From a virus (Duplodnaviria > Caudoviricetes), in the IMG/VR virus record IMGVR_UViG_3300025867_000008, positions 1 to 64,000 of that record: DNA of 64,000 nt. One strand, given 5' to 3'. The notes below the pieces were generated by a model. The model ran no database searches. It was not told the origin of the DNA and saw nothing but the letters and a program-made list of their open reading frames with translations. The stretch's first letter is position 1. Each line of letters starts with the position of its first letter. Below, piece after piece: positions 733 to 62,961 of this stretch. The position numbers and the translations under genes are program-made.

Positions 733-1360
733 TATGATTTCTTTCAAATATAATTTCCCCTTCATTTATATAATCTCTTATTAATTCACCCAATATTTCA
801 TATGGTGATTTATCTTCTTCCCATACCTCCTCGTCATAAACATCATAAGCTCTTATCTTCTTCTCTTTGGCTTTTGACATGGATTCATTATTGACTTTAA
901 TATCTGTGATTTTATCTCCTCGAGTAACAACTACTATAAGAGTTTTGTCTCTGAATAAAATACCGTAATAAGTATATACATTTCCATTATTATTATTTTT
1001 TCTATTTTCCTTTTTAGTTTTTCTTATTTTATCCGGATCGTTTTCTATGATATTAATATATTTATTGAGAATTGGAGCTTGATTTTTTGCTTTCTCTAAT
1101 TGTTCTAATTCTTTCTCTCTTTTAAGTCTTCTTTCTTGCTCTTCTTTTTTAGCTTTTCTTTCAGCTTCAATCTTTCTTAAAATTTCCCTTCTCATTTTAT
1201 CTAACCGCTCTTTTTCAGCTGCGAGTATTCTTTCTTCTTCTCTTTTCTTTCCAAAATATTCTTTTTTATTTTGATTCCAAAAAGGTTCATTCGGATCTTT
1301 TTTACTTTCTTTTCTAAATTTTAGAAATCTATATTCTTCAAATGTTTTTAAATTTTCCAT
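722..1360 (-). CDS. Hypothetical, CTS-like leader, degenerate DPYGEExW motif; paralog of 1362..1898
   Basis: Start moved to MENLKTFEEY (ATG at 1360); DVYDEEVW; shares LxKYIxII..PD(K/R)I(R/K)KTK and YYGILFxD with its neighbour. Confidence 0.75.
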   Translation of the reverse strand: MENLKTFEEYRFLKFRKESKKDPNEPFWNQNKKEYFGKKREEERILAAEKERLDKMRREILRKIEAERKAKKEEQERRLKREKELEQLEKAKNQAPILNKYINIIENDPDKIRKTKKENRKNNNNGNVYTYYGILFRDKTLIVVVTRGDKITDIKVNNESMSKAKEKKIRAYDVYDEEVWEEDKSPYEILGELIRDYINEGEIIFERNHIMN

Positions 1361-1361
1361 A

Positions 1362-1898
1362 TCAAAATATAATTTCATTTTTTCTAACATAATCTATAAC
1401 CAAATCATGCAAAACTTCCCAAGATGTTTTTTCATTTTCTTCCCAGGATTCCTCACCAAACGGATCAACTTCTTTGTTCATCTTCTTTTCCTTCGTATCA
1501 GACATATCCACATCATTTATTCTGAGGTATCTTTGTTGCATTTCACCAGTCATCCCATAACCTTTATAATAAGATGATACTACGGTTGTGCCATCATCGA
1601 ACAATATTCCATAATAAAGATAAGTTCCGTAACCTTGATGTTCTCTATCTCTAAATTTAGTCTTCTTTATTCTATCTGGATGATTTGTAATAATATCAAT
1701 GTATTTGTCCAGCATGGGCTTTTCTTCTCTGGCTTTTGTAACTCCATTTAAATATCTTCGCTCTTCTTCTTCCGCTAGTCTTCTAATTCTTTCTTCTTCA
1801 AATTGAAGTTCTTCTTGATGTTCTTCCTCACGACGACGACGTATGCGACCAAAAAGTTGTTCGTTCAAAAATTCATTATATTTAACTAATTCTTTCAT
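1362..1898 (-). CDS. Hypothetical, CTS-like leader plus DPFGEESW
   Basis: MKELVKYNEFLNE leader; EVDPFGEESWEE. Confidence 0.8.
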   Translation of the reverse strand: MKELVKYNEFLNEQLFGRIRRRREEEHQEELQFEEERIRRLAEEEERRYLNGVTKAREEKPMLDKYIDIITNHPDRIKKTKFRDREHQGYGTYLYYGILFDDGTTVVSSYYKGYGMTGEMQQRYLRINDVDMSDTKEKKMNKEVDPFGEESWEENEKTSWEVLHDLVIDYVRKNEIIF

Positions 1899-1913
1899 AT
1901 TTCTTTCATATTA

Positions 1914-2720
1914 TTATTTAATTGTTACAGGCTCAAACCAGTAATTAAACCAAAAATAATTATTTCTTACAATATCATATTTTTTTCCTTCTATATCTAA
2001 TGTTACATAAGGATCTCCATTTTCATCTGTATTATATCCTTTAACTTCAACAATTTTTCCTTCTTTTAAATATTTTTGTCCTCCCATTTCATCTCTTAGC
2101 GGACAATCTTGTTTTAAATTCCTATACATACCTGGTTTAGGAATAAACCAGTTATAAACCAACTTGTATAGATATTGATTTAACTTCAAATAATATTCTT
2201 TATCAATGTATTTAAATTTTGGATCACTCAACATTTCTGTATCAAATGTTGGTTTGGTATGACTTGCGTTAAAATTACGAAAAACTCCAAAAAATTCTTG
2301 ATCCATAAAATCAAAAGATATGTAGATATTGAGTTTTAAACTCTCATTTTTGAATATCCTTAATATTTTTATATTTTTATATTCATCAATTTCCTCTAAA
2401 AATCTATCAGATTTTCTAACGAATATATGGTCATCCAACATTTCCTTAGATATTTGTTGAATAATTTGCATTAATCTACTTGTTGTTCCAGCACTTCTTG
2501 CGTAAAAATCTACATACGGATTTGAGTCTGGTGAATATATGGAAAGCCCTGGATCACAGGCTGTTCCGTAGCCAGGTCCAAAAGTACTAACGGCATTATC
2601 TATTCCAAGTTGATATTGATTGAACTCAGATGATTCTCTAATCATTTGAACTTGTTCTGATCGGTTGATATATTCAACTAGTCTTTGGTTTGTCGTGAAT
2701 TGTTTAAAATTAGTTACCAT
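1914..2720 (-). CDS. Hypothetical protein
   Basis: 268-aa ORF in a minus-strand operon; leader MVTNFKQF. Confidence 0.75.
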   Translation of the reverse strand: MVTNFKQFTTNQRLVEYINRSEQVQMIRESSEFNQYQLGIDNAVSTFGPGYGTACDPGLSIYSPDSNPYVDFYARSAGTTSRLMQIIQQISKEMLDDHIFVRKSDRFLEEIDEYKNIKILRIFKNESLKLNIYISFDFMDQEFFGVFRNFNASHTKPTFDTEMLSDPKFKYIDKEYYLKLNQYLYKLVYNWFIPKPGMYRNLKQDCPLRDEMGGQKYLKEGKIVEVKGYNTDENGDPYVTLDIEGKKYDIVRNNYFWFNYWFEPVTIK

Positions 2721-2922
2721 GCAATTTAAATAAGTTATTATTTATTTTTTCGAATAAACCGTCTTTAACTGCCATATTACATAAAAATCTTCCGAATTTT
2801 TTAATTGGTATTATATCGCATTCTGGAGTGACTTCTATTCCGATTTTATTTAAAAATCTATCTAAAAATGAGTTATTCCCTGATTCTTCGTTTAAAGTAT
2901 CTGTAAATTTTTTTACTTCCAT
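2710..2922 (-). CDS. Small hypothetical, CTS-like leader
   Basis: MEVKKFTDTLNEE; TATATA element upstream at about 2942-2948. Confidence 0.65.
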   Translation of the reverse strand: MEVKKFTDTLNEESGNNSFLDRFLNKIGIEVTPECDIIPIKKFGRFLCNMAVKDGLFEKINNNLFKLHGN

Positions 2923-3018
2923 GATCGATCTTATTTTTTCTTATATATAAAATATGAAAAATGAAATATATTTTTTAATATATATAAGAAAATATCCTTT
3001 CAAAAAATAATTAATATT

Positions 3019-5154
3019 ATGGATCTTAATAATATAAATTCTTTTGATAATTTCAAAAAAATATTAGAACAATCTATACCATCAGAATTTCAAAACGCAA
3101 CAAGATTTTCTCAATGTTTAGTTGGTAGAGGTCTGTTTAGTATATTAAGATATTTCAAACAAGGAATAGATATGGGTAGATTAGAATATCTCAGAAGAAA
3201 ACTCGAGAATGAATATTTTGCAGGTTGGTTAAGATTCTGTGCAGCTCGTCAAATAAATATAAAAGATGGAACAATGATTGAGAAAAGTGTTCAAACTTCG
3301 GGCGAAGAATATGGTGGTGGTGAGGACACTGATCAAGGCGAACAACCAAACAATGAGTTTGTTTGTGAGATTTTAAATTTGGATTATACAGATAAAAATC
3401 AATTAGCCACAACAAAGAAAAATTTTGAGGATCACATATCAAGTCTCGAACAACCCAAAACTGAAGGAGGAATTGAAGAAGAAGATTTAAAAGAATTGGA
3501 AGATGCTTTAAATGAAGCCGAATCTGCATTAGAATATCTTAAATTAAAAGAAGATATGAATAATAATGTATTTGAAGTATTATTAGCTGAACCATCGGGC
3601 GTAACTTTTGACGCTGAAAAAGAAAACAAAATATTGGAACTTTTAGAAAGAGTAAAAACTTTCTTAAGCGATAAAGCCAAAACTTGTACAACTTATCATT
3701 TAACAGAAAATGAGAAAGCTATAATAAATAAAATAGAATCTTGTACAAATGAAAATATCAAAACTAAATGTAACGAAATAAAATCTTTGATAGAAACAAC
3801 TACAGAACCTCAGTCACAACCAACTCAAGAAAGCCTTTTATTGGAAGAAGTTGTGAGTGGTAATATGCCTATAATGTTAGTGCTCGGTGATCAATTAAAT
3901 ACATCATATACGTCTGGTAGTGGAACAACATTGAAGAAAATAAAACCTTCTGATTATTTAAAATCTATTGGCATTAATAACGTGAGTGAAATTAATTGGA
4001 CAGAATGTGCTAGACTATTCTCAAAAAATCCAGAGTTTAAAAAAATGGCTGCTAATATGGTTACAATAGAAGCTGTGAGAAAAATTCAATATGCTGCGTC
4101 AAGAATCATATTTAGAGTTAAGAAAACTCCAACCTACACAGGTATGACTCCCGAAAAAGGCGGCGGTGTTGATTATAAAGAAGATTCCGCTCTAAGAACA
4201 GTTTGGGAAAGAAAAGTAGAAGTTGTCAAAGGCGAATGGACAATGTTTTTAGATTTTTCTAGTTATAAAATAGATCCATTTAGAGCATTAAACTTACAAG
4301 ATGCTATAAGAAGCAGAGATGCTAATTTTAATAGTTTCAAAGAAGAATTCGATGCTCAAACAGGAGGCATAATAAGTGAAGATGAAATGTCTAAAATAGG
4401 ATTAAAACTTATTAAAGATAGAATGTTCAAAAAAGAAGGAACCCCAATAGTTATAAACTATATATTGAATAATAAGAATATGTGGTTAGTTTTCTTTATT
4501 GAAACTGATAAATTAAATGCTGAAAGAACTGTGTATAGATATATAGGCAACATAGATATAAATAAAATAAGAAACGATAAAGTTTATCAAAGAAGTGATT
4601 TCAAAGATAAAGCTAAAGATTATGCCGCTTGTATATTAGACAATAATTATAATAACATTGGAGATAAAGAAGTAAAAAATATTCTTAAAATAGATAGAAA
4701 TGCCGTATCAAAGGGGACTTCAAAATATTTAAATGGAATATTCTTAGCTTCACCTGATTTTAAAAGAATAGGAATTAATGAAGAAGGAGTACCTAAATTA
4801 CGTAGATCTAGATTATTCTTCTTATATTTAGATGGAAGTGTTTTAAATAAGAATAATGCATTTTCTTCAATAAATACACACTCTCCAATAGATAAAGCCA
4901 GAGTTGGGTTGGATACAATTGAAAAGGGTGGAAATAAAATAGATATACCAACTACTACTGTGGTTGATCTAAAAGATCCTAATATTAAGAACCTTTTGAA
5001 TTCTTATGTTGGAAATATGTATATTTTCCTACCAACTTGGGAAGAAAATTATTTTGGAACATTGACAACGAATATACATAATATGACAAAAAATCCATCT
5101 CCGTTAAAAATAAATAGTGGAGAGTCTTTTAACGGAGTATTTACTTTAAAATAA
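3019..5154 (+). CDS. Large hypothetical, probable virion internal protein
   Basis: 711 aa; leader MDLNNINSFDNFKKILE; internal QESLLLEE; TTAATATATA at 2975. Confidence 0.75.
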   Translation: MDLNNINSFDNFKKILEQSIPSEFQNATRFSQCLVGRGLFSILRYFKQGIDMGRLEYLRRKLENEYFAGWLRFCAARQINIKDGTMIEKSVQTSGEEYGGGEDTDQGEQPNNEFVCEILNLDYTDKNQLATTKKNFEDHISSLEQPKTEGGIEEEDLKELEDALNEAESALEYLKLKEDMNNNVFEVLLAEPSGVTFDAEKENKILELLERVKTFLSDKAKTCTTYHLTENEKAIINKIESCTNENIKTKCNEIKSLIETTTEPQSQPTQESLLLEEVVSGNMPIMLVLGDQLNTSYTSGSGTTLKKIKPSDYLKSIGINNVSEINWTECARLFSKNPEFKKMAANMVTIEAVRKIQYAASRIIFRVKKTPTYTGMTPEKGGGVDYKEDSALRTVWERKVEVVKGEWTMFLDFSSYKIDPFRALNLQDAIRSRDANFNSFKEEFDAQTGGIISEDEMSKIGLKLIKDRMFKKEGTPIVINYILNNKNMWLVFFIETDKLNAERTVYRYIGNIDINKIRNDKVYQRSDFKDKAKDYAACILDNNYNNIGDKEVKNILKIDRNAVSKGTSKYLNGIFLASPDFKRIGINEEGVPKLRRSRLFFLYLDGSVLNKNNAFSSINTHSPIDKARVGLDTIEKGGNKIDIPTTTVVDLKDPNIKNLLNSYVGNMYIFLPTWEENYFGTLTTNIHNMTKNPSPLKINSGESFNGVFTLK

Positions 5155-5166
5155 AATTTAAGAAAT

Positions 5167-6105
5167 ATGTTAAAATTTTCTGAATATAATAAATTATTTG
5201 AACAAACAACAACGGCAGCTCCACCAAAAGCTGCACAACCAGTAGCGCCAGCTCCGCCAAAACCTGCACAACCAGCAGCACCAGCTCCAAAACCAGTTAA
5301 AGAATTAAATGCTTTAAGTGTAATAATACAGAAAATAGATAAAATAAAAAACAAAGTTGCTGAAAAGAAAACAGCAAAACCAGGCGAACCAGAGAAAGCT
5401 TCTGTAAAACAAGGAGAACCAATTCTTTTGAAAGTCGGCGTTAACTTTAGGGTAGAGAGTAAAAAAGGATATGAATTCGATTTTTATTTTGTCAAAGAAA
5501 ATGAAAATGATTATCCTTTATATTCTGTAAATACAACTTATGAAAAAATAAAATCTCAAAATAAGTATGTTATACCTCTTAAAGATGATGTTTACGATAA
5601 ATTTATGGATATTTGTGGAACTTTAAAAACTGCTATACAACAAAAACAACAACCAACGTCTCCCATTCCAGGTAAGAACAAACCAGTTTTAGCATCTTAT
5701 ACCTTCGATGATGAATATTTGAGGTTATTTGAAATAGCTGGACAAGAGAATTTATTATCTGCATTGGTTGGATCTTTTGGACAATCAAAATTATCTGATG
5801 GAACTACTACTGTTCTTATGGCATATGGTCAAATTAAAGATTCTATAGGGGAACTTAAAAATAAAAATCTTAATGATTTAGATTCAATGGTTTCTCAAAA
5901 AAATATAGTTAAAGATAGTGAAAAGGATCAATATATGACATTGTGGTATTTGGAAAAGGAAATTAAAATGGAAGACGGCGATTTAGAATTTCGCCCGCTG
6001 TCTTTAGGAAAGGATCTAAAAACTGGTAATAAAATAAAGATCTGTAGAGATGATCAAAATAAGTCTGTTCCTATAGAAATAGAAAAAATCGATGCTATAA
6101 AATGA
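5167..6105 (+). CDS. Hypothetical, CTS-like leader, Pro/Ala-rich linker
   Basis: MLKFSEYNKLFE then AAPPKAAQPVAPAPPKPAQP. Confidence 0.75.
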   Translation: MLKFSEYNKLFEQTTTAAPPKAAQPVAPAPPKPAQPAAPAPKPVKELNALSVIIQKIDKIKNKVAEKKTAKPGEPEKASVKQGEPILLKVGVNFRVESKKGYEFDFYFVKENENDYPLYSVNTTYEKIKSQNKYVIPLKDDVYDKFMDICGTLKTAIQQKQQPTSPIPGKNKPVLASYTFDDEYLRLFEIAGQENLLSALVGSFGQSKLSDGTTTVLMAYGQIKDSIGELKNKNLNDLDSMVSQKNIVKDSEKDQYMTLWYLEKEIKMEDGDLEFRPLSLGKDLKTGNKIKICRDDQNKSVPIEIEKIDAIK

Positions 6106-17164: not shown

Positions 17165-18478
17165 ATGGATTATATAAAATCATACAATCAAATAAACGAA
17201 GAATTAAAAAGAACACTTTCACCAGCAAGACTTAAAAAACAACGCGAAGATGAAGATCAGGAAATTCTTGCTAAAACTCCAGCCGATCTATTTACCGCAG
17301 ATGAAATGAGAGATCTTAACAAGGAAGATTTTACAATCCAAGATGATAAAAAAGAAGCCAAGTGTGTTGAAAAATATCATACTTTTGTTATAAAAAAGAG
17401 TCTTGGATTAAATGACGAAGTTGTATATACTTTAATTGTTACAAATAATAAAGACGGGAAAGTCGAATATGAAAGGAAAATAAATGTAACAAAAAGATCT
17501 CAGCATCGCGATACTCTTGATTTTATGTTAGATAAGTGCGCTTATATTATTCATAACATGAAAGAAAAAGCAATGAAAGAGTTAGATCCTTACGGTGAAG
17601 AATCTTGGGAAGAAAGTGAAAAAGATAAAATAATTGCTAGAAGAGCTGGCGTTTTAGCCGAGCCTGAAATTCCAAAAGAAGAACCAAAGAAAAAAAAGAC
17701 AGGGCGACACTATGTTGTTAAACTCGGCGGCTGGAAGGAAGTGGAAGAAGACGAAGACGAAGACGAAGACATATATAAAGGAAAAAAGAAAAAATTAGTT
17801 TTGCCAGAAATTCCAGTAACAGATGAGCAGTTACCAGAAGAAGAAAAAAATAGGATAGAATGTCCTGTGTGTGGTGGAACTGGAGAAATAGTTAATATGG
17901 ATGATGAAGTATGTGACGAATGTGGAGGAGATGGAAAGATAGATGGTCATGATTGTGACGAATGTGACGGATCTGGATATGTTGAAGTAGAAATAAATGA
18001 GCCTTGTGAAGAATGTGGTGGAAGCGGATTTATAGAAGAAAAAATTCCAAAAAAGAGGAAGAAGAAAACAGATACAAAGAAAAAAGTTACAAATTGGTAT
18101 GATGATCTAGGACCACTTCCAGCATACACAACATATGAAGAAGGGTATGAAGAATGTCCTCATTGTGGAGGAACAGGAAAAGGACATTATTATGATTGTG
18201 GATTTTGTCATGGAACAGGTACTCAAAAATCTTCACCAAAGAAAATAAAAATCACAGGACTTGGTGGAAAAAAATTAAAGGAAGAAACGGTTCCAAAGGC
18301 GTCAAAATCAGGAAAAAAATATAAAGAAATTGAATGTTATATCTGTAAGGGGTGGGGAACTGTTAATGGAAAAGAATGTTACGGTTGTAGCGGCACAGGC
18401 AGGAGAAAAGTAGATGCGGACTATGAAGGTCCCACATGGAGTATAGGAGGAGCATCAGATATAACATATGGATCATAA
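17165..18478 (+). CDS. Protein with 8 DnaJ-type CxxCxGxG repeats, no J domain; CTS-like leader plus DPYGEESW
   Basis: CPVCGGTG, CDECGGDG, CDECDGSG, CEECGGSG, CPHCGGTG, CGFCHGTG, CYICKGWG, CYGCSGTG; no HPD motif. Confidence 0.75.
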   Translation: MDYIKSYNQINEELKRTLSPARLKKQREDEDQEILAKTPADLFTADEMRDLNKEDFTIQDDKKEAKCVEKYHTFVIKKSLGLNDEVVYTLIVTNNKDGKVEYERKINVTKRSQHRDTLDFMLDKCAYIIHNMKEKAMKELDPYGEESWEESEKDKIIARRAGVLAEPEIPKEEPKKKKTGRHYVVKLGGWKEVEEDEDEDEDIYKGKKKKLVLPEIPVTDEQLPEEEKNRIECPVCGGTGEIVNMDDEVCDECGGDGKIDGHDCDECDGSGYVEVEINEPCEECGGSGFIEEKIPKKRKKKTDTKKKVTNWYDDLGPLPAYTTYEEGYEECPHCGGTGKGHYYDCGFCHGTGTQKSSPKKIKITGLGGKKLKEETVPKASKSGKKYKEIECYICKGWGTVNGKECYGCSGTGRRKVDADYEGPTWSIGGASDITYGS

Positions 18479-18507
18479 AAAAGAGGGAGTTTAGCTCCCT
18501 CTTTTTT
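18477..18507. terminator. Bidirectional intrinsic terminator
   Basis: AAAAAAGAGGGAG-tttag-CTCCCTCTTTTTT between convergent genes. Confidence 0.85.
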
Positions 18508-20377: not shown

Positions 20378-20402
20378 ATATTTTAATTTTTCTTTTTTTA
20401 TA

Positions 20403-43706: not shown

Positions 43707-43714
43707 CGTAATTG

Positions 43715-46464: not shown

Positions 46465-46531
46465 ATAGAAGATTCGCTAATAGAACGAGAGATGAAAAAG
46501 AATTAAGAATAAAAAACATAGCTAATAAATT

Positions 46532-47113
46532 ATGAACAATCTATCAACATATGACAATTTCATAAATGAGGGTTTATTTTTTGGTAAAAAGAAACCAAAA
46601 GAAGAATACGAGCAAGACGACGATTTAATTTATCAGATAATTAATAAATTGGAGAAAGGAATTAATTTAAGATTTTTAAAATACGATTGTCAATATCATT
46701 ATTCTGCTATAAAAACTAATGACAGGAGAGATATATTATCTTATACGTATAGAATTACTAAAAATAAATTAAATCCATTAGATCCATATGGTGAGGAGCA
46801 GTGGGGGGATGAAACTGAAAATATAATGGAATTAGTAATTAAAATTAGTAGAGAAAGAGAAGATTCTGATAAAAATAAGAGAGTTATAAAAATAAATTCT
46901 GTCGAGCAAACAGTGAGTGATAAAGCTTTCTATAAATTATGGAATATATTTGAAAATGCAGAAAGTATAGAAAAAGAAAGATTAAAAAAAGAAGCTGAAA
47001 GAATAAGATTAGAAAAGCTAAAAGAAGAAGACGAAAGAAGGCGAGAGAGAAGCGCTGCTGTAAAATCTTCTTTTATGGATTTTCTAAAAGAATATCATAA
47101 AAATAGATTATAA
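46532..47113 (+). CDS. Tandem family member 5 (CTS-like leader plus DPYGEEQW)
   Basis: MNNLSTYDNFINEG; RVIKINSV. Confidence 0.8.
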   Translation: MNNLSTYDNFINEGLFFGKKKPKEEYEQDDDLIYQIINKLEKGINLRFLKYDCQYHYSAIKTNDRRDILSYTYRITKNKLNPLDPYGEEQWGDETENIMELVIKISREREDSDKNKRVIKINSVEQTVSDKAFYKLWNIFENAESIEKERLKKEAERIRLEKLKEEDERRRERSAAVKSSFMDFLKEYHKNRL

Positions 47114-50487: not shown

Positions 50488-51375
50488 ATGGGTTATGGAT
50501 ATTATTCAATGGAAGAAAGAACAACCAGGGCTGATACCTTAGGTTATAAAACAAAATCCGCTCGTGAGATCTTCAAGGAAAGGCATCTAAACAAAGAAAT
50601 GGATCCTAAAGATGTAAAAATCAGAGAATCGCGTGATTCTGATGATCATCCCGAGTCAATCTCTATTATCATCGCCCTTGACCACACCGGTTCAATGGGT
50701 TCGGTTCCACATCATTTAGTAAAGGAAGGTCTTCCTAATCTTATGGCTAAGATTATGGATAAGGGAATTAAAGATCCTCAGATTCTTTTCTTAGGAATTG
50801 GCGACCACAAATATGACAAAGCTCCTTTACAGATTGGTCAGTTTGAATCCAGTGATCCACTTATGGATAAATGGCTTACAGAAGTTTATCTCGAAGGTGG
50901 CGGAGGAGGAAACGGTGGCGAAAGTTATCTTTTAGCTTGGTATTTCGCATCGCGTCATACAGCGATTGATTGTATGGAAAAACGTGGTAAAAAAGGTTAT
51001 CTTATTACTATTGGTGATGAGCCTACTTTTAGAAGTATTCCCGAAGATGCCATTAAGAATATTATGGGTGAAGTAGCTCCACTTCCTTATGATGAAGAAG
51101 ATTGGACGCCAGATGATGAGCTTACCGCAGAAGATCTTTTAGCAGAAGCTAAAAGAAAATATGAAGTTTATCATATTCATATTCATCAGACTAAACAGGG
51201 TCAGATGGAAAAGAATATCGATAGTTGGAAAGATCTTATAGGTGATAATCTAATTGTAGCTGAAGCTAAAGAAGATATTCCTGACATTATCGCTGGTATT
51301 GTTTGTAACAATTTCGGTGAGATTAAATGGTATGGTAATGGAAAACTTGAAGAAGAAAAAGTTGTAACTCTTTAA
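50488..51375 (+). CDS. VWA-like (MIDAS) domain protein
   Basis: IIIALDHTGSMG (DxSxS-like), GGGGGNGGESY, ITIGDE. Confidence 0.75.
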   Translation: MGYGYYSMEERTTRADTLGYKTKSAREIFKERHLNKEMDPKDVKIRESRDSDDHPESISIIIALDHTGSMGSVPHHLVKEGLPNLMAKIMDKGIKDPQILFLGIGDHKYDKAPLQIGQFESSDPLMDKWLTEVYLEGGGGGNGGESYLLAWYFASRHTAIDCMEKRGKKGYLITIGDEPTFRSIPEDAIKNIMGEVAPLPYDEEDWTPDDELTAEDLLAEAKRKYEVYHIHIHQTKQGQMEKNIDSWKDLIGDNLIVAEAKEDIPDIIAGIVCNNFGEIKWYGNGKLEEEKVVTL

Positions 51376-51386: not shown

Positions 51387-52499
51387 ATGAAAAAAGCTGT
51401 AATTGGTCTAGCCTTTGGTGATGAAGGAAAAGGAATGACCGTTGACTATTTGGTTTTCAAATCAGAAAATAAACCTCTAGTAGTTCGCTTCTCGGGCGGA
51501 CAGCAGGCCGGTCACAATGTTGTAGTTGGTGATAAAAGTCACATCTTTTCTAATTTTGGAAGTGGTACATTAAGAGGTTCGCCCACATACTGGTCAAAAT
51601 TCTGCACCATCGATCCTGTAGGATTATTAAAAGAAATGGATATTCTTAAAGAAAAAGGTGTGGATCCTATTATCTACATCGACGGTGATAGTCCAGTAAC
51701 AACACCCTATGATAAATTCCACAATAAAAATAATAAAGTTGACCTGGATCACGGAACCTGCGGACTTGGAGTTGGATCGACAATAAATCGTGAGGAGCAT
51801 TATTATTCCTTTACTTTTAGTGATTTGTTTTATCCTTGGATTTTAGATACCAAATTAGAGCTTATTAAAAATTTCTACGGAGATATTGATTTGTCTGAAC
51901 AGGTGGATGAATTTTTGATGTCTTGTTATAAAGTTACAAATGATGATAGCATCAAATCGACATATGGAATTCCCATTGAATATAAAAATTCTGATGATAT
52001 TATTTTTGAAGGATCGCAGGGTCTTTTATTGGATCAGTGGTATGGTTTCTTTCCACACGTTGCTAGAACTAACACAGGAACAAAAAATATTTTAGGAATA
52101 ACTGACGATGATTTTCAGTTATATCTAGTTACAAGAGCTTATCAGACAAGACATGGAAACGGACCGATGACAAACAAAGAATTGGATATAGAAATTAAAA
52201 TCGATCCTAATGAAACAAATGTGAATAATAAATATCAGGGTGAATTTAAAAGAAGCGTTTTGGATGTTTCTTTACTTAAATACGCTATGAATAAAGATGA
52301 ATATATTAGAAAGTCTTTAAATAAAAATCTGATTATCACCTGCTTAGATCATCTTACAGAATATGTTTTCACATATGATGAAAAGATAATCTATTGTAAA
52401 GATGAGAAGGAATTCGTTAAGAAAATTTCTGATATTCTAGGAATTGAAAATGTTTATGTAAGTAGAAGTCATTTTGCTGAAAAAATTGAAAAAATATGA
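51387..52499 (+). CDS. purA: Adenylosuccinate synthetase-like protein (divergent PurA clade)
   Basis: FGDEGKG, RFSGGQQAGH, HGTCGLGVG, FEGSQGLLLD, TRAYQTRHGNGP, TCLD. Confidence 0.8.
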   Translation: MKKAVIGLAFGDEGKGMTVDYLVFKSENKPLVVRFSGGQQAGHNVVVGDKSHIFSNFGSGTLRGSPTYWSKFCTIDPVGLLKEMDILKEKGVDPIIYIDGDSPVTTPYDKFHNKNNKVDLDHGTCGLGVGSTINREEHYYSFTFSDLFYPWILDTKLELIKNFYGDIDLSEQVDEFLMSCYKVTNDDSIKSTYGIPIEYKNSDDIIFEGSQGLLLDQWYGFFPHVARTNTGTKNILGITDDDFQLYLVTRAYQTRHGNGPMTNKELDIEIKIDPNETNVNNKYQGEFKRSVLDVSLLKYAMNKDEYIRKSLNKNLIITCLDHLTEYVFTYDEKIIYCKDEKEFVKKISDILGIENVYVSRSHFAEKIEKI

Positions 52500-52710: not shown

Positions 52711-54402
52711 TTAATCCGCATCTTCTTCTGTATAATCATCAGCGTTAAAGAGCATTCCAACTTCTGGTCCTTCTTCTTCCTTAACTTCTTCTACTTTTGT
52801 TTGCTTTAATTTGAAGTCAAATAATGATCCTAAAACGCCCATTCTTTTATTGATCATTGGAAGATCCAAGGCTTTTAAGAAACTATTGCAAATTGTTAGA
52901 ACGGTTTTATCAAACTGAGCGTCATAATCAAAAAAGACTCTTTCTTTTTCTGTTATTTCTGTTGGATGCATTCCTCTTAGATAACCAAATACATTATGTT
53001 TATCGTGTTTACAATAATAATATTTTATTCTTCCACCACCTCTAATCATATCGTATTTAGTCTTAAATTCTGAATTTTTGTTAAGCAGATAATTATAGAA
53101 AGCCGCAGCCTTTACTCCATAATGAGCTCCAAGGACTGTTTCCAAATCAGTAGTGTCATTAATAACCTTGTCTTGATAATTTGAGCAACCCGTTTGACTT
53201 GAAATATTATCTATTTCTTCTAAATCAAATTCTTTTCTAATTTGTTTTACTATCTTTAAAATATCTTTAATATTCAAACTATCAGAGTTGGCGAATAAAT
53301 ATTTAATAAAATCCCAAATACCACCCTTTTGATCCTTACCACGCACAAATGGTGGAGTTTCACTTCTAACAATCTTAATACCAGTTGGTGAAAAATAAGT
53401 AAGTGGATCGTAGAAAATGCCGTCTTCCCATCGAATTGATTTGAGATAATTTTTCTTTTCGAAAAAGAGAATTGATTCACTGATTGTTTCCAATTCAAAG
53501 TCTTGTTTATTAGCTACGCCAAATCTCTTAGCATAAATGTCTAGAAACTCCGCGTGTTTCTTCTTCATTAAAACTTTGTCAAAATGTAAAATAAATTGAA
53601 GTTGATCTCCTTCATATCCACAGGATTCCATGATTGGTTTATAAGAAAAATAGAACGAATCTGTGTCCCCGTACATGGAGACCTTATTCGGACCGTTATA
53701 AAACATAGAGTCGTTATCTACACCTTTTATCCATTTTGGATTAGGATCTAATGACGCGACTTCTTTTAAATCAAATATTTTATATTCATACATCAATTCA
53801 TAATCATCAACTTCACCTTCAATCTTTTTTAATTTATCCAGAGTTAAACTTCTACTCAAAAGAATATCACCAAGCTCACCATTATTGAAATATGGATAAG
53901 GTCTATCTATCTTCTTGTATTCTTTATTTAAAAAGTAGTATTTGCCATCTATTTTATTTTTTACAATGAATTCAGTACCAAGTAGATCGTGATTCTTTGT
54001 GTCTGCAGCCCATTCATTATAGAAATAATTTTCAGTGCAAACAATCATATATCTAATAAGATCTCTACCCATGGCTGTAATAGCGTTGGCTATTTTTGAA
54101 TTGGATAATACAAAATATCTGTTAGCAAAAGCACCATATGTAGCATTCAACACAGTTTTAAGTGCCAGCTGCATAGCCTTATTATAAGAATATGAAGCTG
54201 TTAAATCTGATACTTTCTTTTTCAGATTCAATATGTGATTTAACTTATCTATTTGCTTTGGCGGATATTCTTGATCTGGTTTGATAGTAAAAGCTTTCTT
54301 ATAAAGATCTAGTGCATTATCATAATCTTTACTTCTACAATACTGGTCCGCTCTTTTTATTGTTTCGTTATATGATCTATTTGTGAGTGCTACATCTGGC
54401 AT
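52711..54402 (-). CDS. Family-B DNA polymerase, C-terminal subunit of a split enzyme, with an N-terminal TPR-like hairpin
   Basis: Motif B QLALKTVLNATYG, motif C YGDTDS, KKNY, GIKIVRSETP; no motif A (DxxSLYPS) or exonuclease motifs. Confidence 0.85.
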   Translation of the reverse strand: MPDVALTNRSYNETIKRADQYCRSKDYDNALDLYKKAFTIKPDQEYPPKQIDKLNHILNLKKKVSDLTASYSYNKAMQLALKTVLNATYGAFANRYFVLSNSKIANAITAMGRDLIRYMIVCTENYFYNEWAADTKNHDLLGTEFIVKNKIDGKYYFLNKEYKKIDRPYPYFNNGELGDILLSRSLTLDKLKKIEGEVDDYELMYEYKIFDLKEVASLDPNPKWIKGVDNDSMFYNGPNKVSMYGDTDSFYFSYKPIMESCGYEGDQLQFILHFDKVLMKKKHAEFLDIYAKRFGVANKQDFELETISESILFFEKKNYLKSIRWEDGIFYDPLTYFSPTGIKIVRSETPPFVRGKDQKGGIWDFIKYLFANSDSLNIKDILKIVKQIRKEFDLEEIDNISSQTGCSNYQDKVINDTTDLETVLGAHYGVKAAAFYNYLLNKNSEFKTKYDMIRGGGRIKYYYCKHDKHNVFGYLRGMHPTEITEKERVFFDYDAQFDKTVLTICNSFLKALDLPMINKRMGVLGSLFDFKLKQTKVEEVKEEEGPEVGMLFNADDYTEEDAD

Positions 54403-54442: not shown

Positions 54443-55957
54443 TCAATTAGTTTTAAAAATATATTTTAATTGACCAGAATCGTATATTCTATATATTTTA
54501 CGTTCTAACATTATTTCATGTTCTGTTTTACTCGGATCAAATCCTTCTTTAATTAATTTATCTTTTCTAAAATTAAATCTATAATTTCTTATACCGTTTA
54601 TAACATAATAATAATTTGGTCGTGTTTTGTGTTCCAATTTAAATCCAAGTTTCTCGTATAAATCACCCTGACTCCAAGATCTATCAGCGTAACTAATTAT
54701 TTCTAGCGGAACATATTTTTCAATAAAATATTTAAACAAACGACTAGCCCCCCCTACAACATTAGTGTTCAATTTATTACAAAATCTAAGCATTTCATAT
54801 GTTCCTTCTTTTGATATTTGACCCATAAATTTTCTCAATTTCCCGAAAGTCATCAAAGAAACCAGTTCGTCGTTATAAAATAATCCTATTTTTATTTTAG
54901 AAGAAACATTTCCTTGTAAATGATTTTCATCTAGAAACTTTCTAATCAATTTATTATTATTTACTTCTCTTATATCACATTTGCGGGCATAAATTTTATC
55001 AGATTTTCCAAGCAAATTTAATATTCTAGATTTAATTATATCTTTTTTATAGAACCAATCGTCTTGATATATATGTATTAGTTTAATGCCTTGTTTTTCA
55101 GCCAACTCAGTTTTTTCCTGATGATAATTATTTGGTTTGTGTATTTCATTATGCCAATAAATACCATTAAATTCAAATCCGATTTTTATGTCAGGTAAAT
55201 AAATATCTATTTCTTTTCCTGTTTTCTTGTCGTTTGATAAAATTATTTTATCATAATTACTTTTAATAAATTCTTTTAACAATATCTCCTGACCACTTTG
55301 AGTGTGAGACCCAACTGGATTACAAATTGTACACAAAACAGTTTCTTTATTGTTCTTGGTTCTGTTTTTTAAAATTTCAGAATCGATTTTAAATTGATGT
55401 CCCTTGTCACAATACATAATATAATTATAATCCTCGTCTATATCTATAACTCCTTTGTTTTTTAATTTTTCTAATAAATTTTTTTTGTAAACACCGTCTC
55501 TTTTTTCTCTGTATTTATTACTGAAATTATTTATAGCTAAATAAAATTTGACTCCATATTTTTCTAACATGGTTTCTTTGTGTTTTTCTATATTATTATA
55601 ATTTTCATCACCGTATTTCTCTTTTTTAATTCTTTTTACTTCGTCGGAATATCCATTCAATTTTACGTAGTTATCCACTCCATATTTTTTGATACTTGTT
55701 AACTTTTTTTTCTTATCGCTACATTTTTTGCAAGTAAAAAAACCATAATGAGAAATGTTCTGATAGTATTTAGCATACATTAAAGAATACTCTTTCTTAC
55801 AAATATCACAAATAACTTCTATTTTAATATGAGAATTGTTTGTAAGATCTTTAGTTTTTATAAGTAAAGTATCTCCTGTAACAACATACCCCAGATGTTG
55901 AAAATACGATTTATTCCTATTGGAAATATTAATTTCTATATTATCATTTTTTATCAT
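54443..55957 (-). mobile_element. Homing-type endonuclease (Zn ribbons, PD-(D/E)XK/Vsr-like core, GNAT-like C-terminal domain; Hef-like)
   Basis: CDIC..CKKC, KYGV repeats, EIDIYLP..IGFEFNGIYWH, ENHLQG, LRFCNKL..VVGGASRL, SYADRSWSQG, RIYDSG. Confidence 0.7.
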
Positions 55958-58921: not shown

Positions 58922-59719
58922 TTATATAACGTAGGCCGTTATATTTTTATCATTCTCATTAATTACTTTATATCCCATTCTTATGAATAATTCTTTATAT
59001 ATTCTTATTCTCTTTGGATCGGAATTGATTTGAATTTTATCAAATTCTTCTTGATGTTTATCTAAAATAATTTTTAAAGTAGGGAAAATTCTATTCATTT
59101 CGAAATTGCCGATGTCATCATGACACCCTCTTCCACTAACAAAAAATCCAATGTTCAAGGTTCTTTCTTTGAATGATAATCTGACTACATAATAAAAATT
59201 TTTATCTGTTTTAAATCTATATTCATAGACTTTATCGAAATGTAAGCGTTTTTCAATTTCAAAAGGTCCTTCAATGTTATATGGATTGGAATCGAATAAT
59301 TCTCTAATTAATTCCAAATCATAATCTATAAAATCTCCTTCTTTAATATTATTTACATCACAAAAACCAGCATTTACCTCAACGACGTATTTAGCTGGTT
59401 TTTTTGATATAATACTTTTGATGTTCATAGGCTTAGCTTCTCTAATATCTACAATTTGATATTTGCTATTAACATAAATAATATCAAGTGGAATATAAGT
59501 ATTTTTCATCCAGAAAGATAGAATTTGATCGCTATCAAATTCAAAAAACATTCCAGCATCATCTGGAAGATCTTTTCTGAACATCAATCCTTTAGCGTTG
59601 GTTTCTGCTAATTCTATATTTATTTTTATATTATTTCTTTTAGTAAAAAATGTAAGTTCACCGTCTTTTTTGAATATTGTTTTTTGTTCAAAGACTGCGT
59701 ATTTCATTAAAATTTCCAT
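58922..59719 (-). CDS. DUF192-domain protein fused to a second module
   Basis: KGLMFR..GMFF..FWMKNTYIPLDII..YVVEVNAG; then IRELFD module. Confidence 0.8.
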   Translation of the reverse strand: MEILMKYAVFEQKTIFKKDGELTFFTKRNNIKINIELAETNAKGLMFRKDLPDDAGMFFEFDSDQILSFWMKNTYIPLDIIYVNSKYQIVDIREAKPMNIKSIISKKPAKYVVEVNAGFCDVNNIKEGDFIDYDLELIRELFDSNPYNIEGPFEIEKRLHFDKVYEYRFKTDKNFYYVVRLSFKERTLNIGFFVSGRGCHDDIGNFEMNRIFPTLKIILDKHQEEFDKIQINSDPKRIRIYKELFIRMGYKVINENDKNITAYVI

Positions 59720-60744
59720 TATTGTTGAAGCAGAGGAGTTATTTTTTCAATTATTTTATCATATTCGCTATTTTTTAATTTGACAACTCTCTTTCCTATT
59801 GACATTTTTGGATATAAATTTAAAGGAATATTTTTTATCAACATTCTTTTTGTGTTAGTGGATATTATTAACTCAATCGGTTCTTCCCATTGCTCTTCCC
59901 CTAAAGGATCATGTGGATTATTTTCATCGTCCATATTTATATTTATGTAATAAAAAGGACCATAGTCTCTTTCACTGTCTTTTTTTCTATAATCCATCAA
60001 ATAAAATTCAACATCTGTAGCTTCAATGATATTGGGCAGTCCTCTAAAATTATTTATTAATCTTACCTGAATGTCAGCGTTTTTTGCTTTTTTAAGAAAC
60101 ATTGTGAACAATTTTTTTGTTATAATACCTCTACTGAAAAATATGGTAATAAAAATTAAACATATCCCAGCGCTTATTAAAGTAAAAAATTGTTCATTTA
60201 GATGGTCGGATTCAAATAAATCATTTTTTAAGGTTTCTTTCTTATTTCTTAGATCTATTATAGCTTGTTTCTTTTGTTCTATTTCTCTTCTTTTACGCTC
60301 TCTTTCAGCTATTCTTTTTTCTGCTTTATCGTCTCTTTTTCTTTGAGCCAATCTTCTTTTTCTTTCTCTTTCTCTTCTTTTTTCTGGATTTTTGAACATG
60401 GATAATAAAAATAATTTTTGAGCGTACGGCACTTTCATTTTCATATCATTAACATAAAGATCTATTTTAATTTTCTTTTTCCATGCTATCATATAAATAT
60501 TAAAGATTTTAGGTGGGCCTCCAATTTCTTCTTCCCCATATGGATCATCTTTAGAAAATACTTGCTTTATTTTACGGAGTCTATATCTATATGTATTTCT
60601 CCATCCGAGATCTTCACTATCTAAATCTTGAAAAACAAAATTAGTTCTTAGTTCATTTATTATTCTAGTAACTATTTTTATATCAAGAATAGAATATTCC
60701 TCATTTATACTTTCAAAATTATCATAGGAATTCAAATATTCCAT
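59719..60744 (-). CDS. Two-module hypothetical (CTS-like leader, DPYGEEEI, internal LNE plus TM, DPLGEEQW)
   Basis: MEYLNSYDNFESINE; DLFESDHLNE-QFFTLISAGICLIFI. Confidence 0.75.
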   Translation of the reverse strand: MEYLNSYDNFESINEEYSILDIKIVTRIINELRTNFVFQDLDSEDLGWRNTYRYRLRKIKQVFSKDDPYGEEEIGGPPKIFNIYMIAWKKKIKIDLYVNDMKMKVPYAQKLFLLSMFKNPEKRRERERKRRLAQRKRDDKAEKRIAERERKRREIEQKKQAIIDLRNKKETLKNDLFESDHLNEQFFTLISAGICLIFITIFFSRGIITKKLFTMFLKKAKNADIQVRLINNFRGLPNIIEATDVEFYLMDYRKKDSERDYGPFYYININMDDENNPHDPLGEEQWEEPIELIISTNTKRMLIKNIPLNLYPKMSIGKRVVKLKNSEYDKIIEKITPLLQQ

Positions 60745-60775
60745 TATAAAATTTATTTTCTACTATATATAAAAA

Positions 60776-61042: not shown

Positions 61043-61100
61043 TTATGAGTTTGCTTTTTTAATATATATAAGAAAATTAAAGTTCGTTTTTTTTCTAACT

Positions 61101-61790
61101 ATGAAAACATTTGAGCAATTTAATGATCTGAGTAAAGAACAAGAAATTAAAAAAAGAATTTATGAAGTAATAAATTATTGTAAATTGAACGGATGGACAA
61201 AAAGTATCGAGAATAAGATAACAGAACAAATGCCTTTCAGTAAAAATGATTGTCAAAATTTTCTAAATGCTAATTCACCTAATCTTTATGATAAATTGGG
61301 GGATTGGAAAAAGGATACAGAATTAAGAGTATCTAATGGTGTAAAAGAATACGAACCAGCTGCAACTAAGTTTTTAGATTACTATTTTTTAAAAATAATA
61401 AAAGAAGCTTTTGGTGATAATAAAAAATTAAAATTATGTGATCTCGGTTGTGGAATTGGAAATGTAATATATTTTTCAGAAAAACTATGTTACGATTCTA
61501 TGGGAGTTGAAAAACTAGATATTTTTAAAGAAATTTATAAAAAATATAACTTAAATGTAATAGTCGGTGATTTACTGGAAATAGATCTATCATTTCTAAA
61601 TGATATTGATGTTGTTTATATGTATAGGCCTATATCGGATATCGATAAATTAAATTATTTAGTTGACAAAGTATCTAATAATATGAAAAGTAATAGCATT
61701 TTATACTTCAATTTTGCTCCAGGAGTTAAATTCCAAAAATTTGAATTAATGGTTGATTTTTGGTCGTCAAAGATACTAGTTAAAAAATAA
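61101..61790 (+). CDS. Class I SAM-dependent methyltransferase, CTS-like leader
   Basis: MKTFEQF; CDLGCGIG, GVE, VGD, VYMYRP. Confidence 0.75.
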   Translation: MKTFEQFNDLSKEQEIKKRIYEVINYCKLNGWTKSIENKITEQMPFSKNDCQNFLNANSPNLYDKLGDWKKDTELRVSNGVKEYEPAATKFLDYYFLKIIKEAFGDNKKLKLCDLGCGIGNVIYFSEKLCYDSMGVEKLDIFKEIYKKYNLNVIVGDLLEIDLSFLNDIDVVYMYRPISDIDKLNYLVDKVSNNMKSNSILYFNFAPGVKFQKFELMVDFWSSKILVKK

Positions 61791-61799
61791 AAAATAAAA

Positions 61800-62168
61800 A
61801 TGGTCTTAGATTTTAAAGATTTGTATATAAAATATGATGGACATCCAAGATTTCACACGGATAGAATTGTAGAAGATGATGTTGTTGAAGTGATTGTTCA
61901 GAAGTTAGAAATGGTTCTATTTACCGTAAAAGGATCTCTTTACGGCGAGCCTAATTTTGGAAGTAATCTCGAGTATTATCTATGGGAAACTAAGGTCCCT
62001 TCTTCTGATATAAGAAGTAATATTGCTAAACAAATAGACACTTATGTTCCAGAGTTAAACGAAATTGGATATACTCTATCTGTTGATTTATATGAAGGAT
62101 CATACAGAGATATTTTATATTTAAATTTTATTATAAAAGGCTATAATTATCAAATGTTATTAAAATGA
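61800..62168 (+). CDS. Baseplate wedge gp25/GPW-like protein
   Basis: QKLEMVLFTVKGSLYGEPNFGSNLEYYLWE..QIDTYVPE. Confidence 0.75.
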   Translation: MVLDFKDLYIKYDGHPRFHTDRIVEDDVVEVIVQKLEMVLFTVKGSLYGEPNFGSNLEYYLWETKVPSSDIRSNIAKQIDTYVPELNEIGYTLSVDLYEGSYRDILYLNFIIKGYNYQMLLK

Positions 62169-62650
62169 TGAACAACGTCAAAACATATGAAGAATTTAAT
62201 GAGGCTATTATTATAAATAAGCCTGATGATAATATCCCAGTTGTGGTTAATAAAGAATATTTTACAACGGATGAAATTAAAATGCTGGAGAATAATGAAG
62301 GATTTGAATTTGATCACATAACCAAACAAAAAGCTGTAAGTATAGCTGGAAAATATAGATTATCAATTTATAAAGTAAAAGAGGGATTCTATATTTATAG
62401 AATAAGAAACATGGAAAAAATTAATAATCCAATAATATTTGATGAAGTAGCTAATAATATTATAGATTGTTTAAATGGTCTTGATAATTTTTTATGGGAA
62501 CAAAGTAAAAAAGAAAAAGAAGAATTAGACAAAAAGAAAAAACTAACTTATGAGGAAGATGAAACTACTACAAAGAAAGAAAAACCTCCAGTATTCAGTG
62601 GTTATCCCTTTAGTGGAAAAGGAAGTTTAATAGAAAAAAAAAATATATAA
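62165..62650 (+). CDS. Hypothetical, CTS-like leader
   Basis: MNNVKTYEEFNE. Confidence 0.75.
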   Translation: MMNNVKTYEEFNEAIIINKPDDNIPVVVNKEYFTTDEIKMLENNEGFEFDHITKQKAVSIAGKYRLSIYKVKEGFYIYRIRNMEKINNPIIFDEVANNIIDCLNGLDNFLWEQSKKEKEELDKKKKLTYEEDETTTKKEKPPVFSGYPFSGKGSLIEKKNI

Positions 62651-62652
62651 AC

Positions 62653-62961
62653 ATGAAAAATTTAAAAAACAGAGACAAATTTTTATTCGAACAGAATAAC
62701 GATCCTTTCAACGAAGAAAGAGAAGATGAGAATGATGTTACACAAGATGATGTAGCATGGGTTAGTGCTGATTGGAAAGATACAGAAGAACTTATAGATG
62801 GTTTTAGAGAAGCCCTAGAAAAATTTGGGCTTCATATGTATGAAGATCCAGATTTTGATGACACTGACTCTTATGGATTTATAATATCCAAAACAGAGCT
62901 TTCTGACAATCAAATAGAAGCTTTATCCAGAGCGCACAATCAAGATTTTTTTGAAGATTGA
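62653..62961 (+). CDS. Acidic hypothetical, CTS-like leader plus DPFNEE variant
   Basis: MKNLKNRDKFLFE-QNNDPFNEE. Confidence 0.7.
   Translation: MKNLKNRDKFLFEQNNDPFNEEREDENDVTQDDVAWVSADWKDTEELIDGFREALEKFGLHMYEDPDFDDTDSYGFIISKTELSDNQIEALSRAHNQDFFED

Follow-up and report, generated by a model that had tools for sequence, protein, structure and literature searches.

Results

Octapeptide copies in the window

The stretch of DNA analysed here, referred to as the window, is the first 64 kb (positions 1 to 64,000) of the IMG/VR virus record IMGVR_UViG_3300025867_000008, a contig of 116,659 bp and 29.4% G+C that is listed as linear and ~25% complete, and the subject of this report is a short peptide, DPYGEExW, that recurs in otherwise unrelated proteins encoded on it. 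The contig is a fragment of a Mahaphage-type huge phage of roughly 700 kb. The DnaK encoded in the window (18506-20425, minus strand) shares 82% identity with the DnaK of LR756501.1, a 735-kb 'uncultured phage', as against 58-63% with the DnaKs of LR745206.1, LR756502.1 and LR756504.1, phages of 634-642 kb. Passages of PMC7162821 rank these relatives as the four largest phage genomes and place them in the Mahaphage clade, with predicted Bacteroidetes hosts. Together with the contig they form a comparison set of five records, of which the last three named are complete and lack the peptide. Gene counts are approximate throughout, being crude calls of the longest open reading frames (ORFs) with an ATG start and at least 45 amino acids (aa), picked greedily; 154 were called in the contig and 1022 in LR756501.1. 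By BLASTP, 101 of the 154 contig genes have a match in LR756501.1, and 55 have one there and none in the two sister genomes compared.

A six-frame search with DP[YFL][GS]EE.W returned exactly the 14 near-perfect copies reported in a first-pass annotation of the window, all in long open frames, and the five variants that it listed (DVYDEEVW, VYNEEIW, LPYDEEDW, DPYGEEEI and DPFNEE) are all present. Its count of 15 carrier ORFs is likewise correct, with strict copies in 12 ORFs and variants only in a further three. Along the window, the copies are as follows.

821-844, minus strand: degenerate copy DVYDEEVW, residue 183 of ORF 722-1390
1443-1466, minus strand: DPFGEESW, residue 145 of the 178-aa ORF 1362-1898, which bears a leader
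17585-17608, plus strand: DPYGEESW, residue 141 of the 437-aa ORF 17165-18478, a DnaJ-type CxxCxGxG zinc-finger protein adjoining the phage DnaK
21473-21496, plus strand: DPYGEEKW, residue 324 of the 345-aa ORF 20504-21541, near the C-terminus of a protein with one hydrophobic segment
28058-28081, minus strand: DPYGEEIW, residue 461 of the 732-aa multi-module ORF 27263-29461, following a K/E-rich helix
28379-28402, minus strand: DPYGEEIW, residue 354 of ORF 27263-29461, immediately ahead of a YKVGNRV barrel
28742-28762, minus strand: degenerate copy VYNEEIW, residue 234 of ORF 27263-29461
29054-29077, minus strand: DPYGEENW, residue 129 of ORF 27263-29461, following a K/E-rich helix
35462-35485, minus strand: DPYGEENW, residue 108 of the 213-aa ORF 35165-35806, with WYSKGKL and an internal leader-like ITKFKIFEN upstream
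39449-39472, minus strand: DPYGEENW, at about residue 18 of the 72-aa ORF 39305-39523 (GTG start), right behind a KFNEFAKINE leader
44977-45000, plus strand: DPYSEENW, residue 65 of ORF 44785-45237, the first of five paralogs, in a mid-protein loop
45420-45443, plus strand: DPYGEETW, residue 63 of ORF 45234-45650, the second paralog
45824-45847, plus strand: DPYGEENW, residue 60 of ORF 45647-46081, the third paralog
46429-46452, plus strand: DPYGEEQW, residue 118 of the 128-aa ORF 46078-46464, the fourth paralog; C-terminal (W, GDD, stop), with no copy in the loop
46781-46804, plus strand: DPYGEEQW, residue 84 of ORF 46532-47113, the fifth paralog
51082-51105, plus strand: variant LPYDEEDW, a candidate tag, residue 199 of ORF 50488-51375, which also ends in a WYGNGKL motif
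59887-59910, minus strand: DPLGEEQW, residue 279 of the 341-aa ORF 59719-60744, a protein with a hydrophobic segment
60523-60546, minus strand: one-mismatch copy DPYGEEEI, residue 67 of ORF 59719-60744
62701-62718, plus strand: remnant DPFNEE, residue 17 of ORF 62653-62961 (coordinate obtained by arithmetic)

In the five-gene paralog array at 44785-47113 the peptide sits in a mid-protein loop in four members and at the C-terminus in the fourth gene, and this shift is direct evidence that its presence matters and its position does not. ORF 722-1390 resembles its neighbour 1362-1898 by eye and has its degenerate copy at about the same relative place. The DnaJ-type carrier at 17165-18478 has no recognisable J domain; its ortholog in LR756501.1 keeps the peptide, at residue 123, and no clear ortholog was found beside DnaK in the sister genomes.

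Anatomy of the tag and its carriers

DPYGEExW is a portable peptide tag, placed at C-termini, right behind N-terminal leaders or in linkers. It is carried by 23 of the 154 proteins called in the contig (15%, about one in seven), which hold 26 copies, four of them C-terminal, and by 86 of the 1022 ORFs of LR756501.1 (8%), which hold 100. Within LR756501.1, 40 of the 100 copies are found within 5 residues of the stop codon and 16 within 20 residues of the start, just behind a leader, the rest being internal; the contig and the IMG/VR loci together have 244 exact copies, and 70 of them are C-terminal (no more than 3-5 residues from the stop). The position-independence claimed for the peptide is thereby borne out by C-terminal, N-proximal and internal copies, as well as by the move from loop to C-terminus in one paralog. 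A logo of 126 copies gives the consensus K-R-V-[FI]-[KSN]-[EDP]-L-DPYGEE-[NDE]-W-[ED]-[DE]. Its core is eight residues long, and in over 120 unrelated contexts seven of these positions do not vary, E5 and E6 among them, while the two positions after W are mostly acidic. The motif is also sharp, with 100 perfect and 10 one-mismatch copies in LR756501.1, 23 and 5 in the contig, and none in shuffled proteins. Among the 44 terminal copies of the contig and LR756501.1, 30 end as W plus two residues, and the final residue is D in 14, E in 9, N in 6, K in 6 and another residue in 9.

One shared folded domain, which the first-pass annotation had named as an outcome that would overturn its proposal, is ruled out: when the tag was masked, BLASTP clustering (E<1e-3) placed the 86 LR756501.1 carriers in 84 clusters and the 23 contig carriers in 17. 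The carriers evolve fast. A match in LR745206.1 was found for 10 of the 86 LR756501.1 carriers, against 217 of the 1022 ORFs overall, and about 9 of the 23 contig carriers have a match in LR756501.1, again well below the overall 101 of 154. The tag stays fixed while its carriers diverge. Pfam domains were matched in few carriers, and these are enzymes or resemble chaperones: one, a deaminase plus CCA-adding/HD protein, has four tags, all of them outside the enzyme domains, and the others are a PRTase-like protein, a nucleotidyltransferase and the DnaJ-type zinc-finger protein. Arrays of small variable ORFans share the one tag. The share of proteins with hydrophobic, membrane-type segments is at background level among carriers (10/86 carriers vs 99/936 other ORFs in LR756501.1, and 2/23 vs 17/131 in the contig).

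A K/E-rich helix usually precedes the tag. One barrel-helix-tag module (residues 27-136 of the contig ORF 112680-113474, 12-row alignment) was modelled with AlphaFold2, which returned the barrel at a predicted local distance difference test score (pLDDT) of 84-89, a helix at residues 78-96 and the tag (residues 99-106) as coil, with means of 62 and 55 for the 10-residue blocks. The tag is not packed on its own barrel in this model, in which it is predicted to behave as an exposed tail.

Abundance and distribution

Searched for as an exact DNA pattern, DPYGEExW has 11 matches in the window and none in any of 100 dinucleotide-preserving shuffles; for the whole contig the figures are 27 strict copies and zero in 50 shuffles. 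A chance frequency, another outcome that would have undone the first-pass proposal, is thus ruled out. LR756501.1 contains 103 copies of the exact pattern (39 forward, 64 reverse) and none of a reversed-pattern control, and zero copies were found in LR745206.1, LR756502.1 and LR756504.1 (~635 kb). At least 102 stretches of IMG/VR sequence, on about 30 contigs, hold the pattern, with up to 7 copies per stretch. A scan of 185,579 bacterial and archaeal species, one genome each, found 72 stretches with the pattern, every one of them single-copy. By a rough estimate some tens of chance matches are expected across these genomes, and the cellular copies are at chance level; an origin of the motif by borrowing from cellular proteomes was rejected on these single-copy matches. 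In one cellular match that was opened, the octapeptide lies inside a conserved 436-aa Pediococcus ORF, which we take to be enolase. Mapped in this way over the contig, its relatives, IMG/VR and cellular genomes, as had been suggested for the motif, the tag is confined to a single sub-lineage among the largest phages known. A literature search for the motif (supplements not covered) found no description of it, in agreement with the earlier impression that nothing like it had been reported.

Selection on the peptide and the leader

The first-pass annotation read the synonymous codon variation of the copies as selection on the peptide, and this holds once next-base context is allowed for, codon usage then being near that of the genome. 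Raw motif codons in LR756501.1 do deviate (CCT 67% vs 34% in the genome, TAC 75% vs 35%, with GGT also in excess), and the genome's own usage in the same next-base context reaches 65% for TAC before G, 62% for GGT before GA and 55% for CCT before TA. Codons flanking the motif show no conservation, and the 80 bases after 40 C-terminal tags hold 0-0.4 bits per column beyond the stop codon. An origin at the DNA level or in a mobile cassette was rejected on these grounds, that is, a codon bias that is mostly next-base context and the lack of conserved DNA past C-terminal tags.

Nearly all carriers had been said to bear a leader resembling the capsid-targeting sequence (CTS) of phage T4. Judged by eye, this is so for 10 of the window's 12 strict carriers; genome-wide it is too broad, and a regular expression for the leader found it in 12/23 carriers and 29/131 non-carriers of the contig and in 23/86 and 134/936, respectively, of LR756501.1 (p ~0.004). 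The link between tag and leader is modest (odds ratio 2-4). The related idea that the tag is a second address label on CTS cargo keeps the co-occurrence above expectation in its favour, and is weakened because the link is modest and because membrane proteins, at their background rate, and cytoplasmic enzymes are among the carriers.

Another peptide specific to the lineage, [IV][KR]WY.KGKL, has 6 copies in the contig and 21 in LR756501.1, as against 0 and 1 in two sister genomes. Its sites are in the window ORFs 35165-35806, 27263-29461 and 50488-51375 and in the contig ORFs 83025-83636 and 101593-102420. AlphaFold2 places it at the turn of a long beta-hairpin, the returning strand of which, IITKFFYF, is leader-like, and on this model the 'CTS-like leader' may be a beta-strand that pairs with [IV][KR]WY.KGKL, in cis or between proteins.

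Different tags in sister lineages

The ~635-kb relatives have C-terminal tags of their own on 50-70 small unrelated proteins. De novo k-mer enrichment in LR745206.1 found RDxKIxx[IL] 50 times in 50 mutually unrelated proteins, 40 of the copies lying no more than 10 residues from the C-terminus. As an exact DNA pattern it occurs 26 times in LR745206.1, 16 in LR756502.1, once in LR756501.1 and not at all in LR756504.1, with controls at 0. LR756504.1 has RKx[RK]Ixx[L] instead, with 76 matches, 65 of them C-terminal, in 70 carriers that form 52 clusters. The sister tags rarely accompany an N-terminal leader (2/50). No carrier is orthologous across the DPYGEExW and RDxKI tags: none of the 10 carriers with a sister-genome match hit an RDxKI-bearing protein. 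Like DPYGEExW, each sister tag is one lineage-specific peptide on dozens of small unrelated proteins, mostly at the C-terminus; they differ from it in being basic, looser in sequence and, by eye, capable of forming an amphipathic helix, whereas DPYGEExW is acidic and sharp. Lineage-specific tags spread over the proteome look like a general habit of these phages.

A TTL-family ligase in the tag-bearing lineage

Outside the window, at 105821-110292, the contig encodes in order GroES, two small ORFs, GroEL, an R2K ATP-grasp protein and a ligase of the tubulin-tyrosine-ligase (TTL) family. The features of this locus that matter here are the following.

106566-108185 of the contig: GroEL (PF00118), two genes upstream of the TTL-family gene
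108286-109167 of the contig: R2K ATP-grasp gene
109171-110292 of the contig: TTL-family protein (PF03133, 86.8 bits against a cut-off of 20.1)

The best solved relatives of the TTL-family protein are TTL (8clg_F, E 2.4e-11) and TTLL6 (3.5e-8), and the alignment retains the FG-DF-vD and E-x-N stretches, which we take to be the ATP/Mg motifs. A six-frame PF03133 search of the five records found matches in the contig and LR756501.1, the two that bear the tag, and none in the three complete tag-less relatives. By tblastn against 50,697 phage records the enzyme was found only in LR756501.1 and LR756503.1, the two matches having the same length, identity and coordinates, and its sole relative in IMG/VR (80% identity) is on a tag-bearing contig. 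A metagenome scan added five loci. One of these, at 96% identity, looks like the same phage; one at 62% identity adjoins GroEL on a 4.3-kb contig with no tag; and three at 41-47% identity, on contigs of 18-21% G+C, also have no tag, these last four contigs being too short for a test of co-occurrence. Elsewhere the TTL family is known from eukaryotes and giant viruses, and a literature search on TTL and bacteriophages returned no phage TTL among the matches listed (titles and abstract openings; supplements not covered).

TTL and TTLL enzymes attach Tyr, Glu or Gly to flexible tails rich in Glu, the -GEE(Y) end of alpha-tubulin being one example. No tubulin/FtsZ domain (PF00091) was matched in any of the five records, while 13 of 14 control genomes gave a match; tubulin was rejected as the substrate on this ground, and the enzyme needs another. 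The tag has the properties of a flexible Glu-rich acceptor in its invariant E5 and E6, its acidic flank and the low model confidence at its position.

GroEL shares the distribution of the ligase, being present in the contig and LR756501.1 (77% identity between the two) and absent from the three tag-less relatives. The usual ending of GroEL is a run of Gly-Met repeats; here it ends P-M-Y in the contig, in LR756501.1 and in the metagenome contig at 62% identity, and this ending could itself be the substrate of the ligase. The gene between GroEL and the ligase encodes an R2K-clade ATP-grasp protein (PF18299, 36.3 bits vs 26.2). According to passages of PMC4431377 and PMC7824862, members of the R2K clade are predicted to join amino acids to proteins, and some phages have them. 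As a tag-specific writer the R2K protein is a weakened candidate, R2K_2 being found in the tag-less LR756504.1 as well.

Barrel domains and head-protein pieces

Small SH3-like barrels with the signature (Y/F)xVGDxV are expanded in the tag-bearing lineage: the contig encodes 9 such domains and LR756501.1 encodes 23, as against 2 and 3 in two sister genomes. The arrangement barrel-helix-tag is recurrent, 8 of 20 barrel ORFs in IMG/VR loci being tagged. In one IMG/VR locus, a minus-strand ORF of ~670 residues at ~3434-5443 consists of six units in tandem, each made up of an SH3-like barrel, a K/E-rich helix and DPYGEExW. The barrel model is a confident SH3-like fold (pLDDT 85.5). CAP-Gly domains are among its best structural matches (3tq7_P, Z 8.3, root-mean-square deviation 1.6 over 59 residues, 25% identity), with 9 CAP-Gly entries in the top 50; in VIA-align, however, 3tq7_P at Z 8.3 and 4b6m_B at 8.1 are tied with the KOW protein 5ohq_A at 8.4 and with eL21 at 8.3. 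Against the CAP-Gly family model PF01302 the scores are 16.7 and 12.1 bits, with a cut-off of 26.5, there is no match in LR756501.1, and 3 of 14 control genomes reach this level. The barrel profile has no significant match in the PDB (best E 0.03; the CAP350 entry 2coz_A at E 0.59), and Foldseek with the barrel model gave no match at E<=0.001. Membership of the barrels in the CAP-Gly family is thus not supported by sequence (Pfam, PDB profile), and we leave them as SH3-like domains with an unproven CAP-Gly resemblance.

At least 14 small ORFs of LR756501.1 copy pieces of the portal, the protease-scaffold and the major capsid protein, and six of them end in or contain the tag. The head-piece ORFs recorded are the following.

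LR756501.1 11314-11850: head-piece ORF
LR756501.1 48028-48549: head-piece ORF
LR756501.1 145891-146127: head-piece ORF
LR756501.1 497197-498567: head-piece ORF
LR756501.1 552409-552918: head-piece ORF
LR756501.1 619760-620383: head-piece ORF

Of the six tagged pieces two are protease/scaffold-like, three derive from the major capsid protein and one from the portal. Tags are enriched in these small paralogs: 6 of the 14 are tagged, compared with 80 among the 1005 other ORFs (Fisher p 5e-4, odds ratio 8.7). The contig has one head-protein piece, at 31688-32200 of the window, and it is untagged.

Other features of the window and contig

The window encodes a tmRNA at 43319-43709 (Rfam RF00023, 81.2 bits) with a predicted tag peptide of 33 residues, as well as a family A DNA polymerase, a helicase and a PurZ-like gene. 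The PurZ-like gene (51387-52499) matches phrog_1211 ('2-aminooxy adenylosuccinate synthetase', E 2.5e-51), its best match in LR756501.1 being only 31% identical. An ORF resembling homing/HNH endonucleases (54443-55957; phrog_3339, E 3.5e-109) adjoins the DNA polymerase gene at 52711-54402. Further along the contig, a SET-domain protein (75595-75993), a radical-SAM protein (66948-67919) and a NUDIX hydrolase (66407-66931) are 65-79% conserved with LR756501.1 and have no BLASTP match in the two sister genomes compared.

Discussion

The tag is probably recognised in trans by one conserved partner. The first-pass annotation had proposed a short linear motif bound by one common partner, and the behaviour of the peptide fits this, with seven invariant positions, predicted exposure and a sequence that is fixed while the carriers diverge; the partner itself is what we infer from that behaviour. 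The leading candidate, still a tentative one, is the lineage's own TTL-family ATP-grasp ligase with the tag as its acceptor, a proposal drawn from co-occurrence and chemical fit. The tag would then act like a tubulin C-terminal tail, as an exposed acidic peptide in which the invariant Glu-Glu would accept amino acids in an ATP-dependent addition and D-P-Y-G and W would be docking determinants, and the resulting mark would set the fate of the tagged proteins, e.g. head loading or turnover. More doubtful is the wider scheme of a marking system akin to the tubulin code, in which the ligase writes on the tag of about a tenth of the phage proteome, the mark decides what becomes of the protein and the sister lineages run analogous pairs of tag and reader. 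Alpha-tubulin tails, and the 'Tub-tag' engineered from them, resemble DPYGEExW as exposed acidic Glu-Glu peptides with an aromatic residue that can be appended to any protein, and here as there a TTL-family enzyme is encoded in the same genome, in this case without tubulin. They differ in that DPYGEExW is not always terminal, rarely ends in Glu and has seven invariant positions.

Several observations weigh against the ligase as the partner. The co-distribution of enzyme and tag rests on two lineages, and 55 of the 154 contig genes likewise have a match in LR756501.1 and none in the two sister genomes compared, among them GroEL, which lies near the ligase gene; the conserved P-M-Y end of that GroEL is a rival substrate. 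TTL and TTLL enzymes are not known to need seven invariant residues. The C-terminal tags mostly do not end in Glu (9/44), as TTL proper requires, so that only a side-chain reaction of the TTLL type would fit. Finally, the R2K ATP-grasp gene next to the ligase is not confined to the tag-bearing genomes.

Loading into the head is nearly as likely as an acceptor role for the ligase because fragments of head proteins are enriched among the carriers, and the two readings are compatible with each other. As a head-loading label the tag would bind scaffold, protease or the inner capsid surface and bring its carrier into the prohead from any position in the protein. The co-occurrence of tag and T4-CTS-like leader above expectation (p ~0.004) speaks for this, as do the tagged arrays of small variable ORFans, which resemble the internal-protein locus of T4; yet the LR756501.1 head module itself (71969-78166; portal, protease-scaffold, major capsid protein) is untagged, membrane proteins would be poor capsid cargo and are carriers at the background rate, the deaminase plus CCA-adding/HD protein, the PRTase-like protein, the nucleotidyltransferase and the DnaJ-type zinc-finger protein are carriers too, and 86 cargo species would be very many. 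The T4 CTS of IPI-III and Alt is, like DPYGEExW, a short peptide on unrelated, fast-evolving phage proteins, and the likeness extends to the co-occurrence of our tag with a CTS-like leader and to the head-protein fragments among its carriers. The T4 peptide, however, is strictly N-terminal, about 10 residues long and confined to a handful of proteins, whereas DPYGEExW stands at any position (N-proximal in only 16 of 100 copies, behind a separate leader) on 8-15% of the proteome, membrane proteins included, and the two have no sequence likeness. Peptides that load cargo into encapsulins or bacterial microcompartments are also comparable as short terminal sequences on flexible linkers that bring unrelated cargo to a shell, and the HK97 fold is common to encapsulin shells and phage capsids. 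Such loading peptides, however, are looser in sequence and either hydrophobic or amphipathic, while DPYGEExW is acidic and invariant.

Other partners appear improbable to different degrees. Docking of carriers to the lineage-specific phage GroEL/GroES or DnaK, or marking for timed proteolysis through an adaptor, is improbable; the distribution of GroEL and the conserved DnaJ-type carrier without a recognisable J domain beside DnaK agree with it, and a cytoplasmic hub would suit soluble and membrane-anchored carriers alike, but an acidic peptide is unlike the known ligands of the GroEL apical groove or of DnaK, and the argument from distribution is as weak here as it is for the ligase. That the tag is instead a self-contained structural element without a partner (a helix stop, turn or solubility cap spread as a convenient module end) is quite improbable. 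Its usual place behind a K/E-rich helix and the octapeptide inside the Pediococcus ORF would suit such an element; a cap would tolerate substitutions, though, and seven of eight positions are invariant, sister lineages with similar proteins use a different tag, and one paralog has moved its tag from loop to C-terminus. We consider it very unlikely that the tag is the ligand of the SH3-like barrels in a modular docking network, in cis or in trans, a partner named in the first-pass annotation; the expansion of the barrels and the recurrent barrel-helix-tag arrangement speak for it. CAP-Gly domains read acidic-aromatic EEY/F tails, and the EEY/F-COOH tails of EB1, CLIP-170 and tubulin are likewise acidic-aromatic peptides beside small SH3-like barrels; in DPYGEExW, by contrast, the Trp precedes two more residues and not a free carboxylate, the barrels fall below the CAP-Gly threshold, and the majority of carriers lack a barrel. 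In the AlphaFold2 model the tag does not pack against its barrel in cis, and prediction of a complex from the barrel alignment and 54 C-terminal tag windows gave 0.01 and 0.02 against a mark of 0.32, a result that we count neither way.

Highly unlikely, in our judgement, is a recognition site for a maturation protease that splits polyproteins into modules and removes leaders. Tags do lie between modules in multi-module proteins, G-E-E resembles the S/A/G-x-E sites of phiKZ-type prohead proteases and D-P bonds are labile, yet cutting at the 40/100 LR756501.1 copies and 70/244 contig and IMG/VR copies that lie no more than 3-5 residues from the stop would free almost nothing, invariance is kept at these terminal positions, and the portal, protease-scaffold and major capsid protein of LR756501.1 are without the motif. 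An element acting in DNA or RNA, or the coding end of a mobile cassette, is close to refuted: the raw codon usage of the motif, with its excess of CCT and TAC over the LR756501.1 average, hinted at one, but the bias is largely gone in next-base context, the flanks are unconserved and there is no information past the stop.

What is new here includes the zero copies of DPYGEExW in three complete relatives and the different tags that those relatives carry, a rate of membrane-type carriers equal to background, the statistics for fragments of head proteins and two structure models, as well as the findings that GroEL shares the distribution of the tag and R2K does not, and that tubulin is absent from the five records. 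Huge phages encode hundreds of proteins without an annotated function, and a single peptide on 8-15% of the proteins implies that one recognition event organises much of this dark proteome; dozens of orphan proteins could thus be sorted together once its reader is found. Should the TTL-family enzyme prove to be the writer, the system would be, to our knowledge, the first in a phage to mark the phage's own proteins post-translationally, much as the tubulin code does in eukaryotes, and would provide a natural, very short and highly specific pair of tag and enzyme. That each sub-lineage has its own proteome-wide tag suggests a general, undescribed layer of protein addressing in giant phages.

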